Of a stretch of 64,000 bases of DNA, positions 1,902 through 62,173 are shown piece after piece. This DNA is from Eledone cirrhosa (lineage: Eukaryota). The position numbers and the translations under genes are program-made. Under the pieces are notes generated by a model that was given only the letters and a program-made list of their open reading frames with translations, did not search any database and was not told where the DNA came from. The DNA lies in assembly GCA_964016885.1 (NCBI GenBank), contig OZ024740.1:273482001-273546000 (forward strand). The letters run 5' to 3'. Position 1 is the first letter of the stretch, and each line of letters opens with the position of its first letter.

Positions 1902-3561
1902 TCTTTATATATATAAAAGCGAGGATGTGTGTGTGTCTGTGTACAACTTTGCATACTTAAGGCTTTTACAATTACCAACTGAATTTGACCAAATTTTCTG
2001 TGCACATGTCGCTAAGATTGTCACATAACAAACATTTTTCAAATCGACCCACGTTGAGCAATAAAAAATCGATATCAAAATTATCGGTAGCAATTGATGT
2101 AAGGGAGATAACCAACTTTATTGACAACCCTTATAAAAAAAAGAGATAACCAACTTTTCAAATATATAAACATCACATTCATTTGAAGATAAATCACTAA
2201 TATTATCGTTTGTTTCTTGTTTATTCTTTGTTGCACTTTCAAAGTTAAAAAAACCCTTAAGTCTTCACCATTGTGGCGACAAGTGACTAACTACCAACAT
2301 GCTTGCAAGGTTGCATGGGGGCCCTCTGTCATCAACATTTTCTGGAGACATTCTTACAATAGGAGATGGTAACCTACCTCCGAATACAGATGGACACAGC
2401 AATTGATCACATCTGCAATGTAGTTGAAACTGTCGATGATCTCAAGGCGAATGTATTCCCGAACTTGCGTGATAACTATACGAATCTTGATTGGCTATGC
2501 GAAAGAGCCATTCTTGCACCCCAAAATATCACGATTAGCTCTATTAACAATCAGCTTCTTCAGCTTCTTCATGGATGTCCACGGATATATAAATATATTG
2601 ATACTGTATGTGATCCACAGGATGCGGTTAATTTTCCAGTTGAATTTCTAAATTCTTTAAATCCTCCTGGTTTACCTCCAAATACATTGGTTCTGAAAGA
2701 GCGAACACCAGTTATTTTGCTGAGAAATATCACTCCTCCAAAACTATGCAATGGTACACGCCTTGTGATTAAAAAACTGTCTCTACTTAGTATTGACGCT
2801 ACCATTCTATTCGGATGTGGAAAAGGCGAGGATGCAATAATAACAAAAATTAACCTGACTACATCAGGCGTTGATACTCCCTTCTCCTTTCGCCGAACCC
2901 AAATTCCCCTTCGTGTTGCCTTTGCGATGTCCATAAACAAATCGCAAGATCAAACTCTGTCCGTCGCTGGAATTCACTTGGATGAACCTTGCTTTTCGCA
3001 CGGACAATTCTACGTGGCTTGCTCACGAGTTGGCAATAGAGATAATCTCTTTGCGTTTGTTCCGAAAAGAAAAACGAAGAATATCGTCTATCCTGAAGTG
3101 TTTTAGTATTAACAAAAAAACTTATTACAGCTCTGCCTTGACTCCACCTTACTCATTACAAAACATACCAATGAATATGTCATGCGGGATACTTTTGATT
3201 ATAAGGTAAAAATTTAACCATACACAGCAAAGGATGCTCTCAAGGAATAGATTTTCTCTTATTCTACTCTTATTGTTTTTTTGTTTGTATACTGCTTTCA
3301 TTACAACTTTTTGTACTTTAGCAAAACTGCCTGTTTTTTTACAGATTTGCAACGTGTATTGTCTTTAATCATTTGTATAACTGCATCCTGTTCAGTGTTT
3401 TCTTTCATTATCAGCATAGTTTATGTGTACAAAGATTGCACTAAATATTCGTTTGCATTAATTTTGACAGGTTGGGGACAAATAATGTTCTTCTTTTACT
3501 TCCTAGCTGTATATGCTTAGCATAATTTCAAACCCCGAGCAACGCCGGGTAAATCTGCTAG
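1902..3561 (+). mobile_element. Non-autonomous Helitron
   Basis: 5' TC (tctttatatatataaaagcgaggatgtgtgtg) after an A; 3' hairpin cccgagcaacgccggg at ~3534-3549 followed by CTAG at 3558-3561 and T (A|T target); contains a PIF1 fragment. Confidence 0.85.
2366..3106 (+). pseudogene. C-terminal part of Helitron RepHel PIF1-family helicase (no Rep domain, no Walker A/B)
   Basis: ORF motifs ERAILAP, FPVEFLNSLNPPGLPP, LLRN..PPKLCNGTRL, RTQIPLRVAFAMSINKSQ, CFSHGQFYVACSRV, TKNIVYPEV. Confidence 0.9.
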
Positions 3562-6926: not shown

Positions 6927-7120
6927 CGTATTTGAGTACATAGAATTAGTCTGTTAGTTGGGATTTTTAAAAAATCCTCTGAATAGAAAACAAAGGGTAT
7001 TGACGAACATGGGACACGAACCCACATCTTTGGTTTGCCGGACCAATGTGTTAAATTACACCACCACGCTATTATTTTTAAAATCCCAACAAACAGACGA
7101 ATTCTATGTAGTCAAATACG
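6927..7120 (-). mobile_element. tRNA-like sequence (~7000-7070, minus) enclosed by ~48-bp inverted repeats
   Basis: Arms cgtatttgagtacatagaattagtctgttagttgggattttt / aaaatcccaacaaacagacgaattctatgtagtcaaatacg; inside on minus: tggtgtaatttaacac a ttggt ccggcaa accaa agat gtggg ttcgtgt cccat. Confidence 0.65.
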
Positions 7121-8815: not shown

Positions 8816-9272
8816 AAGTCCATAATAGAATCATTAGATAAAATAATTACCATATTTCTTCTCCAAATTAGCATAAATCAACCACACAAAAAAAATCATT
8901 TGAACGAGGCTATAAATTTAAAATATACTTGAGATAATATACAAGAGATAAATTATATATCTTCTTATCCGCGATTCATAGCTACAAACAATTTACCTAG
9001 TATTTCTAATAGCCTGTAGAAATTGACTAGACATATAGTTAACCATACAAAATCATAGTTAGAAGAAAAAATGTACATAAACCTTATCAAAATCATCAAA
9101 ATATCTCTACTCCCGGCGGTTTCATTCCATTTTTGGATATATCCGATCACTGAAATATGTATAACGGAGTTTTAAATAAACCTGAATCAACTGAATGTGG
9201 ACCCCGATCTTTTATTAATATATATCTATAACAATCTTTCTATCTATCTATCCATCTATCTATCTATCTATC

Positions 9273-10264
9273 ACCAGTCCTGGGTGAAGAAAAGACCGAA
9301 AACGATGGGCGCCTGGCACATTGAATGCGCTCAGGCGCTCACAGTCCTCTGGCAAGCGGGCGCAGCAATCAGTGGAGACTCCACTTCGACATTCTATAGC
9401 GGGATTGTACGTTACAAGGGCGACGACGTGCTCGGAGAGACTCTGGGCGTCGAAGACGATGAACTCACCAGTATGTTTGGTAGGACTTTCCGCCCGGGAC
9501 CTATGGACAACTTCCAGAGGTCCCTGGCCTGGCAGTGCTACCGAGGAGCTCTACCGGTTCGTGACAAGATCTACAGGCACGGACGCCCTGGCAGGGATCC
9601 TTCCAAGAGGACGTGTCCAAGATGTGCGCAGGACATTGAAACAGTTCTGCACGCAATTGTACACTGCCCGGGCGTAAGAGACCTGTGGAACTATGCAGAA
9701 CAACTGCTGTCGCGTATGGGACAAATACAGTTGACTGCCGAGTCCATAGTAAGGATCAAACCGCCAGACTCTTTCAAAAACGAAAGAGAGGCGGTTTTCC
9801 TCTGTACGGTGGCTATGGTGAAAGAAGTTATATGGTGGACGAGGTTGAGAGGACTGAGGACAGATGCCTTTCTCTCCGGACAACAATTGATTCCATTCTT
9901 TAAGTATCACTTTAGAAGGAGAATCAGGGTGGAGAGAGAGGCACTGCACCCCAGTAAATTTACTGAAAGGTGGGTGAATGAAGCGAAAATGGCCCGAGTG
10001 ATTGGGCCTTCTCTGTTTATAAGCCTGTAGGTTGAGGAAGAGAGCAAAAGGAAGAAAGGAGCACTTGCACAACACGCTCCTTGAGTTGAGGGTTGTTCTA
10101 TCGACGGGGTATTAAACAACCCATTTGTGGCGCCTCCCCCCTATTGGGGATTTCGATTGTTGAAATTGTTTGTTTTTATATTTTTTACACGACTGTATGT
10201 AAAATCCCCGGCATGTCTTTGTATTGTCCCCTTTCTTGTTGCGCCCTTGTGGCTAATAAAGAAA
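9273..10264 (+). mobile_element. 5'-truncated L1/Tx1-clade LINE, copy 1 (ORF2 C-terminus with CCHC zf-RVT, stop at 10030, 3'UTR ending AATAAAGAAA)
   Basis: Open frame with RSLAWQCYRGALPVRDKIYRHG..CPRC....ETVLHAIVHC; flanked both sides by (TATC)n. Confidence 0.85.
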
Positions 10265-10290
10265 TCTATCTATCTATCTATCTATCAATC

Positions 10291-11790
10291 GTGGAGGGGC
10301 AGATCGATGCCCTCCGATGGCGTCGTGGGGCGCTGGACGGAGGGCCCGGTGAAGTTGCTCGGGATCTGGTTCGGACCAGACCTCCAGGTGGAGAAGAACT
10401 GGGGTGAGGTAACGAACAGGGTGTTTGCACTGACCCAGAAGTGGGGCGAGTGCAAACTGTCCCTGAAAGGTCGGGCGGAGGTGGCGAACACTTATATAGC
10501 GTCCGTCATCTACTACCGCCTGACCGTCGTGCTTTGCCCAAGGGAAACGCTCACCAAAATGGAGCGCGCACTCTTCCAATTCCTTTGGAAGAAGCGGGCT
10601 CCTATGGTGAGGAGATCCATCTGCTGTCAACACCCTTCGAAAGGGGGGCTGGGGATGCCGTGGCTAATGATACGTAAACACGCATTAAGGCTACGGCACC
10701 TCCAGGTATTCCTCTCCGGTCAACCGGTGTGGGCCCCGTTTGTGAGGCGATCCTTTCCCAGACTCGTCTCACTCACCGAGTGGCAATCCTGGGTCAAGCA
10801 AAGACCGAGAAAACTGGGCGCCTGGCACACCGAGTGTGCCCAGGCGCTCACGGCTCTCTGGCAGGCGGACCCGACTGTCAGTGGAGAATCCACCTCGTCA
10901 TTGTATAGAGGTCTGGTGGTTAGCACGTGCGACGACGCCCTCAGAGAAGCCCTAGGCATGGAGGAAGACGAACTGGCCAACCTTTTTCGTTAGGACATTC
11001 AGCCCGGGACCCATGGATAACTTCCAGAGGTCCCTGGCCTGGCAGTGCTACAGAAGGGCTCTGCCCGTCGAGAAAGGCTCTACAGATACGGGCGCCCGGG
11101 TAGGGACCCCTCGAAAAAGATCTGTCCCAGATGCGTGTGCGACGAGGAAACCGTTGCACACGCATTGGTACACTGCTCGGGCATTGCTGATCTGTGGGGC
11201 TATGTCGAACAACTGCTGTCAAGGGTGGGACCGATCCGGTTGACCACCGAGTCTATTGTAACGATCAAGCCGCCTCCCCTCTTCAAAAACGAAGAAGAGG
11301 CGGTGTTTCTGTGCCATGGCGAAAGAGGTTGTATGGTGGACGCGTCTGAAAGGACTGAGGTCAGACACCTTTCTCTCTGGCCAACAACTGGTCCGTTTCT
11401 TCCGATATCATTTCGGAAGAAGGATCAGGATGGAGAGAGAGGTGCTGCACCCCAGCCGTTTTTATGAAAGATGGGTGAAAGTGGCGAGAATGGCCCGTGT
11501 GAATGGGCCTTGACTCTACATCAGACTATAGGTGAAGAAGATGAAAGACCAAGGGAGCACCCCTTCTCTGTGCTCCTGAGGAAAAGGGTTGCACACTTTT
11601 TTCGGGGGTGTGTGCGACCCCCCAAGGCGCCTAATCTCTATTGAGGATTTTGTTATATATTTTATTCTGATATATTTTATTTTATTTTTATATTTTGTTA
11701 TTGCCTCCTCCTTATTGAGGACGCCTTGTTTTGTAAACTCCCCCCATTGTACTTGTCCCACTTTTGATGCCCTGGTGACAAATAAAAGAA
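10291..11790 (+). mobile_element. 5'-truncated L1/Tx1-clade LINE, copy 2 (RT thumb + zf-RVT, frameshifted), related subfamily
   Basis: KLLGIWFG..KNW..KLSLKGRAEVANTYIASVIYY..LFQFLW..KGGLG; CPRC..ETVAHALVHC; ends aataaaagaaa then (TATC)n. Confidence 0.88.
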
Positions 11791-38681: not shown

Positions 38682-38959
38682 CAAGTAAGTATGTTTTGAA
38701 ACAGTGAGCGAGTTTGAAATTAGAAAATATATAGCTTTCACCGTATTTTTAACTAAAGGAATTTAGCTTGATAACGGGGTTTAGAACCCTCAGATAAATG
38801 GAAAAAGATGAGTATTGACGTACATAGGAGTCGAACCGACATCTGTGGTTATCGCGACCACTGTGCTACCATTACACCAACACATCACCCATCTCTTTCC
38901 ATTCAAATTAAAAACTACATTCTTAGCGAGTTTAAATGGCAGGTAAGTATGTTTTAGAA

Positions 38960-39720: not shown

Positions 39721-39721
<1 letters not shown>

Positions 39722-40364
39722 ACGAAGGAAATGTGGTAAGGAACCAGGTGGACCATAACGCACAAAAGTACTCAATACTTGAGGTAGTAGAGTGGGTAAT
39801 AGGAACCAGTAAGACCCGGACAGCTGAGCTCAAGCCGTTTCGACGGCTAATTCTGGACTAAATGAAAATTTATCCTGGTATTTAAATAGCCGATCTTCTC
39901 AAGGGGTAATTCCATATATGGTCAAAGTGATTGTCAAAAATCAGTAGTAATTCTGTGGTTGCAAATTAGTAGGGGAGATGGTGGCTAAACCTGCCAGTAG
40001 GAGAAAGAGGGAAGGGGGTGGAGTAGCCCCAATCAAGCGTTTGTAGTGCCAGCTACAGCTGGGCATGAGGTCAAAGAAGATACTGTTTCTTCTTTGACCT
40101 CATGCCCAGCTGTAGCTGGCACTACAAACCCTTGATTGCGGCTACTCCACCCCCTCCCCTCTTTCTCCTACTGGCAGGTTTAGCCACCATCTCCCCTACT
40201 AATTTGCAACCACAGAATTACTACTGATTTTTGACAATCACTTTGACCATATATGGAATTACCCCTTGAGAAGATCGGCTATTTAAATAACAGGATAAAT
40301 TTTCATTTAGTCCAGAATTAGCCGTCGAAACGGCTTGAGCTCAGCTGTCGGGGTCTTACTGGTT

Positions 40365-40369
<5 letters not shown>
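39721..40369. mobile_element. Fold-back mini-element (~280-bp arms 39799-40080 / 40088-40369, unpaired tail 39721-39798)
   Basis: Near-perfect inverted repeat with a few mismatches; family members at 44075-44276 and 59372-59570. Confidence 0.95.
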
Positions 40370-40408
<39 letters not shown>

Positions 40409-40411
<3 letters not shown>

Positions 40412-40851
40412 CCTTGCTTTTATCGAGAATCTAATTGTAATACGTGACGTATTCTATTCTATTCTATTCTATAGCGATTAGGTCTTCAAAATGTTTATTA
40501 TAAACATACAGAATATTTTCGAATATTCTATGTCTATCTTCACATATATATCGCTATTTCAGAGCATTTATTACAATTTCTAATTTCTGCCGGACCGGCA
40601 ACCGCTCTTTCAAACCAGTTCCTGTACACAGCTAAGTATTCTATAAGTCTCTAGCTGTGTCATTCTCGATAAAAAGCACTGGATATGTAATCCTGAAGAT
40701 TTCTAACAAGAATGAAACGCGTAGGTTACTTCCCTTGCTTTTATCGAGAATCTAATTGTAATACGTGACGTATTCTATTCTATAGCGATTAGGTCTTCAA
40801 AATGTTTATTATAAACATTCAGAATATTTTCGAATATTCTATGTCTATCTT

Positions 40852-40858
<7 letters not shown>
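40409..40858 (+). mobile_element. ~320-bp unit in partial tandem (repeat at 40409 and 40730) with a minimal hammerhead at the junction
   Basis: ttcccttgcttttatcgagaatc...tcttcacatatat twice. Confidence 0.85.
40687..40729 (+). ncRNA. Minimal type I hammerhead ribozyme, intact core
   Basis: gtaatc CTGAAGA t ttct aaca agaa t GAAA cgcg TA ggttac; stem I 6 bp, stem III palindrome ACGCGT, predicted cut after 40723. Confidence 0.85.
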
Positions 40859-40884
<26 letters not shown>

Positions 40885-41149: not shown

Positions 41150-41312
41150 TAAGTATGTATACGTACATACATATATGTATACAGATGTACAGTAGTATGT
41201 ATATATACACATACACGCACACATATATATATATATGTACGTATGGATTCACCGAACATTTATTATAATGCTCGGTGTGTTTGTAAACAAACAGCCCGAA
41301 TTAAGCCGTACA
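41149..41312. repeat. Dispersed repeat, second copy at ~51652-51818
   Basis: ataagtatgtatacgtacatacatatatg..accgaacatttattataatg..tttgtaaacaaacagcccgaatt in both. Confidence 0.75.
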
Positions 41313-41514
41313 GTGTTTAGCAACCATCGTTGCCCTTTTGTTCAACACTGACAAAGGAACGATGTACTAGTTTCAAGCTTATTAGCTATCGTCAGCATCG
41401 TATTCCTTCCTGCCAGATGATTGAACGTCTGAAAGTATATACTTTCCTTATGCATATTAACAGCTGAGCAGCCTAATTTGCATATCAAGTGAGTTAGTCG
41501 GTCGGAGGCACCGA

Positions 41515-44507: not shown

Positions 44508-44845
44508 ATGGCAGTATAGTAGAGGGTCGGACGCCATGCTTTCCAGTATAGTTACGTCCCTTTAAGATCTGAGTTCAAATCCCGCCGATGTTGACTTTGC
44601 CTTTCATCCTTACGGGGTCGATAAAATAAAGTACCAATAATGCACTGGATAATTGCTGGCCTTGTGCCTACTGTAGAAACAAATATTAATTATATCTATC
44701 ATGGAGTTAACTCCCTGTATGAACTGAGTTCAAATCCCGCCGAGGTTAACTTTGCCTTTCATCCTTACGGGGTCGATAAAATAACGTACCAGTAATGCAC
44801 TGGGTTATTGATGGCCTTGTGCCAAAAGTAGAAACAATTATTAAT
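44508..44845 (+). mobile_element. Two tandem SINE family A copies (full 44508-44690, partial 44724-44845)
   Basis: ctgagttcaaatcccgccga..gcctttcatccttacggggtcgataaaata twice. Confidence 0.9.
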
Positions 44846-45185
44846 TATATATATCTATATAGATAGATAGATATAATTAATAATAGTAATATTTATGAGA
44901 GTAAATTCTACTCATTTACTCGGGGTATTGTAACGCAATGCTATGATTAGATAAAGCAGAACCAATATATAATTATAATGTGCTTATAAACCAAAATTAA
45001 ACGTTGAAGATATTTAACCACTGACAATTATTTCGTTCTATAGAAATGTACCACCGACAGCAAATTATTTTATTTAACAATTTGTTATTAGATAGCACAA
45101 ACCATAGGAATCATCAGAGGCTAATTAAAATCCAAAACGATTAATACAATATCAATACAAATCATTTCAAAGAGAACAAAAACAA

Positions 45186-49277: not shown

Positions 49278-49811
<534 letters not shown>

Positions 49812-59619: not shown

Positions 59620-61370
59620 TTCGTTTTTGAATTAGTTTTGCAAGATTAATTTTTTGACAACGTAAGTTGAAACATATATTATTATAATTTGGGCGGGTCA
59701 TGCTGTTAATAAAAACACATGCACCTGTTGGTTTTCACTTCAATTTATTTCAAGCTACCGGTTGGTTGGTTGGATAACCGGATTATTGTTTATATATTGT
59801 CAAAGCTCTTTTGTCACACATTCTGTGACCTCCTCACTGACTAGCTTTTCATTTTGTGTCTGTCCTTTGTTCTGTCCTACACCATCTTGTTCTTGTGTGT
59901 TGTATGTTGTGTGCATAGTTACATCCGTGTGTGTTTATTTATTTATTTATGTGTTTATTTACTTGTTACTAGTTATTTGTTTGTTCTATCTGTATGTGTG
60001 TGATTTGTTTTGTTAGTTTGTTTTTGTGTGTGTCTGTATGTCTTCATTTTGCCCTTTATTACTTGTTGTGATGTTGCTATTCCACTCATGTTTCTTGTTT
60101 AATTTTGGTTGGTGTTTGTTTATATGTGTCGCTTTTATGATTCGTCTGAGCATTGTATCTTTTCTGTGTATGATATATTTTTTATCTTTATGTTCTCTAA
60201 TGTAAGAGTATGTTCTATTTTGGCATATTCGTGGAGTACTGATGAGTTTTCCCATCCTAGAGCTCTCACCAGTATTCACTTATTCTTTCTCCTATGTATG
60301 TTATATTATTATTCCTACACTGTTCCTCATTAATCTGATGCTACATACTACGTTCCTAGTTTTGTAGTTAGTTTACGGGCTTAGCTTGTAGACTATGCAA
60401 TTCCAATCAGTTCAGGGGGTACTTTGAAATGGGTATGCTTGACTAATTAGGGTTTTTATGGGAATACCTGGTGTTTCAAGTATCTTAATATTTAATTTGA
60501 GCTTGTCTGGGGCCCTTCTAAATCTGTAAGCAAGTTCGCCTCTATGGGTTGTATCGATGAACACTACATTCTGGTATTTATTGCTATCATACCATGAGAT
60601 GATTTTGTTTGCCTTTTTCCTAATCGTTTCTATTCTGTTTCCAAATGTTCTCCTATACATGGGGCAAGTCCAATTCGCATCATTTTCTACATTCTTTGCC
60701 CATTTGGTTCTGTCCCCCTTTATATACCCTGATCTTGTCTCTCTGATAGCAGCCAGGGAACTGCATGGGATGGATGAAGTTTTGTAAGTGTCTCTCTAAC
60801 TATTTGGGGTTGCACATGCCGGACACGTGCCTCATCACTTTCACTAAGTCCGCAATCAGTATATTGATTTTTGTGTGATCCGAAACAGATGAGATTTGGT
60901 GGATCAGGTATTTTGAGGTCATGGGTTTGGCATAATGCAAATGGAGGATTTAAGTTCTATTAATAATTTGCGTTCTATTAATAATAGTTCCCAACCAGAG
61001 TTCTGTGCCTAGTACGGGTAGTATATGGTTGGCGTATTTAGTTGGGTAGTCTATAGTAAATTTAATACACTGGTGGATGGAGTTATCTATTTGCTGGATG
61101 CTTTCTTCTCTAATTCCTGACTGTTCTCCTGTGGGGGGGGGGGGGTTACTACGATGTTTATGTCATCTATGTAGTGGGAGTACATAGTCAGGGTTATAAA
61201 ATTGTCGTCTACAATTGTTCCTTAACTCTTCTGCCCCACCATACCATAAAGAGGTTAGCTATGTCATCTGCAATGATAACGCGAATGGCTTCGCCCTCCT
61301 CTTGGGCATATGTTTTACCATTACACTTGAACATATGTTCCTTAATGGTCAGTTTTATACTGTCCACCAC
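59620..61370 (-). mobile_element. 5'-truncated, decayed Penelope-like element: RT core, GIY-YIG, 3' pLTR
   Basis: Minus hand translation: FKCNGKTYAQEEGEAI..IANLFM, YSHYIDDINIV (YIDD at 61162-61173), LPVLGTEL, YAKPMTSKYLIH; ORF 60013-60279 with TGESSR..HQPKLNKKHEW. Confidence 0.85.
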
Positions 61371-62145
61371 TGCACTGATAGGAAATGCATAGTCTGCAAG
61401 CTAAGCCCTCAAAATAACTGCAAAACTAGGAACGTAGTATATATCATAAGATCTATTGAGGGACAGTGTAGGAATAAGAACATGACATACATAGTGAAAC
61501 AAACCGTAGCATAAGAGAAATGATATGTGAACACTAGTGAGAGCTCCAGGATGGGAAAAACTCATCAGTACTCCACCACATGCCAAAAATAGAACACAGA
61601 GGTCCATTAGAGAACATATCCACAAACAGAAAAGATGCAATGCTCAGACAAATCACAGAGGCCACAACCATAAATGAACTCCAACCAAAGTTAAAAAGAA
61701 AACATGAGTGGAATAGCAACATCACAACTAGTAATAAAGGACAAAATGAAGACATACAAAGACACACAAAAAAACAAACTAACAAAACAAACCGACACAC
61801 ACAGATAGAACAAACAACCAACTAGTGACAAGTAAATAATCACATAAATAAATAAATCAAAACACACACACACACACACCCGGATGTAAATCATGTGCAA
61901 ACTAAGCACACAACACACAACATACAAGTACAAGATAGTGTAGAACAGAACAAAGGCGAGACAAAAAAATTAAAACCTAGTCACTGAGGAGGTCACAGAA
62001 TGTGTGACGTAATAGCTTTGACAATATATAAACAACAGGCTATCGAACCAACCAGCCTGCCAACCAAAAATTTATAATGCATTGAAATGAAAACCAACCG
62101 GTGTGTGTGTTTTTATTGGCAGCATGACCCTTCCAAATGATAGCA

Positions 62146-62147
<2 letters not shown>
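61371..62147 (+). mobile_element. Inverted copy of the same PLE's 3' end (GIY-YIG + pLTR with mutated hammerhead at 61980-62022)
   Basis: CTDRKCIVCK..CKTRNVVYII; RQITEATTINELQPKLKRKHEW; mirrors ~59680-60413; gtca CTGAGGA g gtcaca gaatg tgtgac GtAA tagctt tgac. Confidence 0.85.

Positions 62148-62173
<26 letters not shown>

Follow-up and report, generated by a model that had tools for sequence, protein, structure and literature searches.

A 310-nt hammerhead repeat family of Eledone cirrhosa, a putative non-LTR retrozyme, and the record of its insertion into (TA)n tracts

Introduction

The closest described systems to the repeat presented here are the metazoan non-LTR retrozymes and the Penelope-like elements (PLEs). 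For the retrozymes, PLE-driven copying of circular RNAs into tandem cDNA is put forward in the cited accounts as a proposal, not as a demonstrated process (PMC7229834; bioRxiv 10.64898/2026.07.22.740005), and eight of nine predicted frog elements are reported to have shown no cleavage in vitro (bioRxiv 10.64898/2026.07.22.740005). The PLE tail is described as a 30-40-bp extension, often present at one end only (PMC8557442; PMC3846280), which in vitro lies between two internal reverse-transcription start sites; in the same in vitro work, uncleaved RNA served the PLE as substrate and hammerhead activity was dispensable (PMC11167929). The steps that follow priming in Penelope transposition are stated, in the published work consulted, to be unvalidated. 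As to the ribozymes, Cervera 2014 is cited for two types: the min-HHR of PLEs, with helix II of 7-8 bp, helix I of 4-5 bp and no helix III, and the canonical metazoan type, with helix I of 6 bp, helix II of 4 bp and a short palindromic helix III. A search of the main texts of openly accessible papers listed no work on retrozymes of cephalopods or on retrozyme insertions with two arms, and the main text of an octopus repeat annotation contains neither the word "ribozyme" nor "retrozyme" (PMC13282606).

In this work, a 64,000-nt stretch of the Eledone cirrhosa genome (hereafter, the window) and a small tandem insertion at its positions 40409-40862 were analyzed together with the repeat family to which the insertion belongs. 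It should be stressed that, taken alone, the window copy is of minor weight and a dead end, and that the value lies in the family, which is young and abundant enough to have left a readable record of insertion.

Materials and Methods

The searched genome comprised 3.0 Gb. Altogether, 138 family loci were read (40 found by similarity search, 18 by hammerhead or variant patterns, and 80 from end lists), so that about 140 loci were examined out of some 1,500 or more in the genome. The mapping of insertion ends took in 126 loci, with L006, L092, L102, L106, L108, and L109 excluded (several insertions, cut, or older subfamily), as well as L034, L035, L111, L150, L155, and L187 (edge, gap or complex). 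Arms were counted only if they ended at unit 120-170; one arm ended elsewhere (L034, at 185). The haplotype analysis covered 133 loci with 834 full units, including 75 loci with full units in both arms. The (TA)n target hides empty sites and target-site duplications.

Results

The insertion at 40409-40862 of the window

The features of the insertion, given in window coordinates, are as follows.

40367-40409, no strand: left (TA)n target tract, to which the truncated 5' end is joined directly
40409-40729, + strand: one full unit (family positions 1-310) with private changes
40544-40551, + strand: internal ATATATAT, unit 126-133, the "no-tail" 3' end site according to arm-end mapping
40552-40584, + strand: "tail" segment, unit 134-166, with the second 3' end site at its end
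40662-40677, + strand: 5' strand of the 15-bp helix flanking the hammerhead in the predicted fold, with one extra A in the window copy
40687-40729, + strand: type I hammerhead motif (core 40693-40699, GAAA 40714-40717, predicted cut after 40723)
40730-40862, + strand: partial second unit (1-133) of the no-tail type, the 3' end of the insertion and putative reverse-transcription start
40737-40751, + strand: 3' strand of the flanking helix in the predicted fold
40855-40884, no strand: right (TA)n target tract, continuous with unit 126-133

A first, sequence-only reading of this region had described a tandem of 1.4 units with a hammerhead at the junction, and this was confirmed: the first copy (321 nt) is followed by a repeat of its initial part, and the intact motif directly precedes the second copy. 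The unit length of about 320 bp given at that time holds for the window copy, but not for the family, whose unit is 310 nt. Relative to the reference unit, the private changes of 40409-40729 are 10 additional nucleotides in a TATTC repeat, one additional A, and two substitutions. Between the two copies of unit 1-133 there is a difference of 10 nt plus one base; their identity is only 92% because the first carries the 10 additional TATTC-repeat bases. Such a difference is not predicted by a single pass round one circle without slippage or later mutation, and since the two copies differ, this locus alone cannot demonstrate rolling-circle copying. The TATTC expansion was also considered as a possible mark of the first unit of the donor, and this was rejected, as it matches 8 places only in the whole genome, on different haplotypes and not always innermost.

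The insertion sits in a TA tract after an older inverted element and merges into (TA)n on both sides. It has a single arm of the no-tail type, which is truncated at its 5' end and amounts to about 1.4 turns. Its single hammerhead, in a spelling that occurs once in the whole genome, sets it apart from most other family loci, which qualify as retrozymes in this respect, and the window copy could therefore not release a monomer by itself.

The hammerhead motif

The window hammerhead consists of a 6-bp stem I (GTAATC/GGTTAC), the core CTGAAGA at 40693, a 4-bp stem II above a U-U mismatch and closed by GAAA, and a palindromic stem III. It had been called minimal; with helix I of 6 bp, helix II of 4 bp, and helix III present, it corresponds instead to the canonical metazoan type as characterized in the cited account, and motifs of this type are expected to work as dimers (Cervera and de la Pena 2014). 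The U-U base of helix II and the short palindromic helix III resemble those described for HHR_Amex2 of the axolotl (PMC7229834).

A hammerhead descriptor gave 3 matches in the window vs. 0.015 per shuffle (200 shuffles), and its strict form gave no match in 200 shuffles. The Rfam score of the window hammerhead was only 16.6 bits (Hammerhead_HH9; gathering score 52), and at the gathering threshold the search of the whole window returned two tRNA-like matches alone and no hammerhead. The 43-nt motif by itself does not fold into the active shape (z -0.75).

Several other features of the window were noted. The inverted element at 39721-40369, which adjoins the insertion, has arms of 285 nt that are 98% complementary, with about 78 nt more in the left one; a hammerhead reading is possible for both arms (40261-40354, + strand; 39814-39907, - strand), with long helices II and III and a core of the U3-A8 variant. 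This element is likely another two-armed insertion of the PLE type. A second hammerhead, with its core at 41395, lies in 41237-41510 (- strand) and belongs to a different repeat family, found elsewhere as tandems of about 470-480 bp and as head-to-head arms (L097, L098), and a third hammerhead-like motif with a longer helix II lies at 49533 (- strand). The two tRNA-like matches (7001-7070 and 38816-38886, both - strand) are probably SINE heads. A 155-bp tandem pair within 44550-44855 is presumably SINE-like, and the open reading frame pieces at 2363-3106 and 9176-11467 (both + strand) we take to resemble a Helitron-type helicase and the C-terminal region of a LINE.

The 310-nt family

The window copy belongs to a young non-coding repeat family with a unit of 310 nt. 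A motif from the middle of the unit had 16,868 exact matches genome-wide, one 3' end type had 1,499, and the tail end had 1,160, the controls giving 0 in each case. No open reading frame of at least 120 aa extends over the unit among the open reading frames of the window. Each unit contains one type I hammerhead, and 1,035 hammerhead junctions were read. Among four runs compared, those from three other organisms each gave a 340-nt contig of the unit with about 98% identity over window positions 40423-40825; their size fits a collapsed 310-nt loop, and the runs, being of unspecified kind, cannot show expression or circles.

Insertion ends

Within the 126 mapped loci, 102 were two-armed, with the arms placed head to head and both 3' ends directed outward in (TA)n; the remaining 24 were scored as one-armed, and 17 of them were of the no-tail type, like the window copy. 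Two fixed 3' end sites, 26-33 nt apart, were distinguished among 228 arms. At the first one, used by 119 arms, the arm ends at unit 126-133, with the internal ATATATAT running into the target, and unit base 125 is T, not C, in 69 of these 119 no-tail ends. This segment likely pairs with the cut (TA)n target. The remaining 109 arms, of the tail type, end at unit 152-168; the second site lies mostly at unit 159, also at 164 and 166. One tail and one no-tail 3' end were found in 102 of 102 two-armed loci, and 51 of 51 head-to-head pairs in the end lists of the first 184 Mb of contig 1, paired by orientation and distance only, were mixed as well. Two fixed 3' ends, with one of each per two-armed locus, are the signature of the PLE tail.

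The 5' ends, in turn, were uniform round the unit (n = 228, chi-square p 0.08). It had been proposed that the start of the window insertion, only 6 nt past the predicted cut, was a clue to copying of a self-cleaved circle. The distance itself is correct, with one base ambiguous with the TA tract; its interpretation did not survive the mapping of the 228 5' ends, which are evenly scattered: 7 lie within unit 303-2 (7.4 expected) and 3 lie exactly at the cut, at unit 304-306 (2.2 expected). The 5' end was thus rejected as a marker of the cut site and, since the ends are uniform, the position of the window start is a matter of chance.

The lengths of 139 arms, selected by end pattern, fit an exponential distribution with a mean of 1,456 nt (KS p 0.10). 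In the same set, 134 of the 139 arms cross the cut site at least once and 115 do so twice or more, with a maximum of 19 crossings; therefore, the template was not simply a cut monomer read once. The joints between arms overlap mostly by 1-4 nt (57/102). Fold-back of one cDNA was also considered as the main source of the second arm and rejected, as either arm type can be the longer one; the tail arm was longer in 34 of 63 loci. The inner ends of the two arms were no closer in phase than by chance (10 within 15 nt vs. 10.2 expected).

Relation to Penelope-like elements

The alternative offered in the sequence-only reading was that the insertion is a 3' stub (direct pLTR) of a coding PLE. The ends, the target, and the inverted arms do resemble those of PLEs, and published work argues for a PLE origin of units of this kind (bioRxiv 10.64898/2026.07.22.740005). 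However, in 160 family-locus records no mapped arm continues in sense into a PLE open reading frame: PLE-like frames in these records lie beyond the outer arm end or face the other way, and upstream of a unit there is another unit, an inverted arm, TA, or an unrelated flank. Moreover, the 30 PLE loci compared with the unit share with it at most short matches of chance level or of the hammerhead core. For the about 140 loci read, out of some 1,500 or more, a stub origin therefore did not hold up and is, in our opinion, scarcely credible. As the anatomy of the insertions is that of PLEs, it should be added that the retrozyme and PLE options are not mutually exclusive.

The PLE family used in this comparison is represented in the window by a decayed copy at about 59690-62170, with reverse transcriptase and C-terminal GIY-YIG likeness (Pfam matches below the cut-off, E 0.003 and 0.0006, respectively) and an inverted copy of its own 3' end. 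This family is abundant (20,021 first-look candidates), and it shows tail and no-tail ends in TA, its tail being longer than that of the unit. In 30 loci it shares no 3' region with the 310-nt unit, and no matching autonomous PLE was found in this comparison with one PLE family.

At about 4340-4562 of L045, a tail-type arm stands head to head with a no-tail end of the window PLE family; this single case fits the rule of one end of each type and is possibly a chimeric insertion. At about 4000-4668 of L053, a retrozyme arm is placed head to head with the 3' part of a coding PLE. Both are possible two-template insertions that could name the partner of the family. Foreign pieces of about 260-270 nt were also observed between the arms of L106 (2535-2792) and L160 (1349-1622), and we assume them to resemble LINE and PLE coding sequence.

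Unit haplotypes and the template

Among the 75 loci with full units in both arms, 27 unit haplotypes were distinguished; both arms agree in 63 loci, vs. 6.6 (maximum 17) after shuffling, and no variant in these loci is fixed in one arm only. Where each arm has at least three units, the arms agree in 22 of 26 loci (3.7 shuffled). Each locus thus has a unit variant of its own, which as a rule is present in every unit of the two arms. In 43 loci, with 2-16 units each, the units show no differences among themselves, and arrays of greater internal divergence are not longer (rho 0.09, p 0.38). Together with the traced variants described below, this indicates that new variants pass a bottleneck of one unit and are amplified at insertion, as is predicted for a monomeric circle.

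Two rare variants were traced genome-wide. For the first one, 42 of 46 matches lie in three arrays uniform for it (one of them cut by a gap), and the others comprise 3 matches in an older subfamily and 1 lone unit. For the second one, 28 of 29 matches lie in two uniform arrays and 1 is a lone unit on another background. No part-converted array was found for either variant. The tracing gave two candidates for the donor unit of a fixed variant, neither of them convincing: the lone 82T unit is not preceded by a hammerhead and its core is dead, and the lone 113G unit stands on another background.

Not all arrays are uniform. Fifteen of the 84 arrays with at least three units are mosaic, some of them with block repeats (L032, L035/L110, L150), and multimer templates or later local duplication therefore also occur. 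The periods expected from a tetramer or decamer circle break in L032 and L035. In L134 both arms begin on one haplotype, and one of them changes after two units and holds the new haplotype for 15, which is likely a template switch between RNAs; the arms of L167 begin with different haplotypes. In the mosaic arrays of L034, L035, L042, L045, and L117, the part-shared substitutions number 27, of which 5 are disruptive for the hammerhead (about 2.6 expected), a weak excess that would fit uncut multimer templates.

These observations bear on a second explanation, in which the template is a long uncleaved read-through transcript of a uniform array, local array growth does the rest, and circles are rare or irrelevant. 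Mosaic and block-repeated arrays speak for it, as do the rare haplotypes: since they are present at 2-3 loci, one array could be the donor of another, and some copies could stem from read-through. Uncleaved RNA is also the main PLE substrate reported in vitro (PMC11167929), and Li et al. 2026 propose a model of local amplification (bioRxiv 10.64898/2026.07.22.740005). Nevertheless, this explanation accounts neither for at least 26 variants fixed in every unit of both inverted arms nor for the selection on the ribozyme described below; long arrays are not more diverged, and the one mosaic pattern traced genome-wide stays within its own locus (3/3 matches). We regard read-through as unlikely to be the general route, and a monomeric template is preferred.

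Selection on the ribozyme and RNA-level signals

According to our own classification of core and stem positions, none of the 9 fixed substitutions in the hammerhead is disruptive, vs. 88 of 129 possible changes (binomial p 3e-5) and 11 of 17 singletons (Fisher p 0.002), with the caveat that this test leaves two fixed single-nucleotide insertions of stem I (found at 39 and 14 of the 1,035 junctions) unclassified. The fixed changes either restore the stem II pair or lie in loop 2, at the variable position of the core, or where stem I tolerates wobble pairs. Propagated variants thus appear to spare the ribozyme, which suggests selection on the motif.

On the ribozyme strand, A>G changes make up 6 of 16 rare fixed variants and 8 of 107 singletons (p 0.003), and five of the six fixed ones lie in predicted helices. 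This excess is compatible with editing of the RNA template; tolerated G-U pairs fit it too.

Both signals weigh on the possibility that the bottleneck lies at the DNA level, in a monomer circle that is cut out of an array and then transcribed repeatedly. Such a circle would likewise yield uniform arrays in both arms, but it needs no ribozyme, and yet the propagated haplotypes lack disruptive hammerhead changes; furthermore, the A>G bias lies on the RNA strand. We consider a DNA circle very unlikely.

The circular monomer folds at -67.8 kcal/mol, vs. -47.1 +/- 5.0 for 150 shuffles (z -4.1). In the predicted structure, the 15-bp helix flanking the hammerhead would hold both ends of a cut monomer together, and this leads to an alternative close to the preferred one: the template could be a cut, unligated monomer, its ends held by stem I and the flanking helix, with the reverse transcriptase jumping the nick at each turn. 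The monomer bottleneck would be no different, nor would the selection on the ribozyme; the flanking helix is predicted, and for bacterial DRT2 there is a report of concatemers copied from a non-coding RNA. On the other hand, 5' ends do not pile up at the cut (the 3 ends vs. 2.2 expected mentioned above), no singleton insertion or deletion lies at the cut among the 18 listed, the junction spellings are uniform, and the monomers of known retrozymes are described as efficiently ligated by RtcB (PMC7229834). A nicked template is in our view decidedly improbable, and a ligated circle is retained in what follows.

Discussion

Taken together, the window copy is a one-armed copy of a family that likely uses a Penelope-type enzyme, and it was likely produced when a monomeric, probably circular RNA was copied about 1.4 turns into a cut (TA)n tract. 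The earlier conclusion that it is a retrozyme, probably copied round a self-cleaved circle, is therefore supported by the family-wide evidence, while the clue on which it was built, the 5' end at the cut, is not.

The following course of events may be envisaged. Tandem arrays would be transcribed, and their hammerheads would cut at unit 304/305, likely as dimers, so that monomers are released and ligated; we infer these steps from the selection on the motif and from known retrozymes. A PLE endonuclease would then cut (TA)n, and each DNA end would prime at one fixed site, at unit ~125-133 or ~159-166, the ends being those observed and the enzyme the one that we infer. The reverse transcriptase would circle the template and stop at random, as the uniform 5' ends and near-exponential lengths suggest, and the two cDNAs would be joined head to head, mostly over the observed 1-4 nt of microhomology. 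In the window copy, only one end would have been extended, and its 5' end would have been joined directly to the TA tract.

A more specific version, for which we see even chances, is that one circular ribozyme RNA, held in a dimeric Penelope-type enzyme, is copied repeatedly from two fixed starts, one for each end of the cut (TA)n. If true, such twin rolling-circle priming would account for the entry of retrozymes into genomes as well as for the one-ended tail of PLE insertions, and changes at the RNA level, such as A-to-I edits, would become fixed in every unit. The readable record left by the family comprises two start sites, each used by one DNA end, a single template haplotype for each insertion, stops at random positions, and a ribozyme under selection. 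The family also supplies a well-defined 310-nt substrate and precise predictions that can be tested in vitro.

Judged by its sequence, the 310-nt family appears to belong to the known non-LTR retrozymes, as it fits every feature testable here for the family. With the metazoan elements described in the cited sections (PMC7229834; bioRxiv 10.64898/2026.07.22.740005) it shares non-coding tandem units of 150-450 bp, one type I hammerhead per unit, low GC, a self-paired predicted circle, and PLEs in the same genome. Those sections describe no two-armed insertions with two fixed 3' ends, and it is the insertion record that was mapped here; circles and cleavage are predicted for the 310-nt family.

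Non-autonomous Chlamys elements, e.g., MRC1 of Chlamydomonas, are, as described in PMC8557442, likewise non-coding dependants of PLEs, often found as multicopy head-to-tail insertions; in contrast to the 310-nt family, they are mostly without hammerheads, and they have 3'-end sequence in common with their partners, whereas no such partner was found here in the comparison with one PLE family.

With EN+ PLEs, as far as the cited portions describe them (PMC8557442; PMC3846280; PMC11167929), the family shares 5' truncation, partial tandems, an inverted 5'-truncated arm, a 30-40-bp tail, and two internal start sites with a hammerhead upstream of them, and with the Hydra and Naiad PLE clades it shares the reported targeting of (TA)n. 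It differs from EN+ PLEs in having no open reading frame and in arms that are multi-turn arrays. It should also be pointed out that one tail and one no-tail end are found at every mapped two-armed locus of the family (102/102), whereas the start site reported for the PLE in vitro was alike on both strands (PMC11167929), and that the no-tail start of the family is complementary to its target, whereas the Poseidon start is described at a site not homologous to the target.
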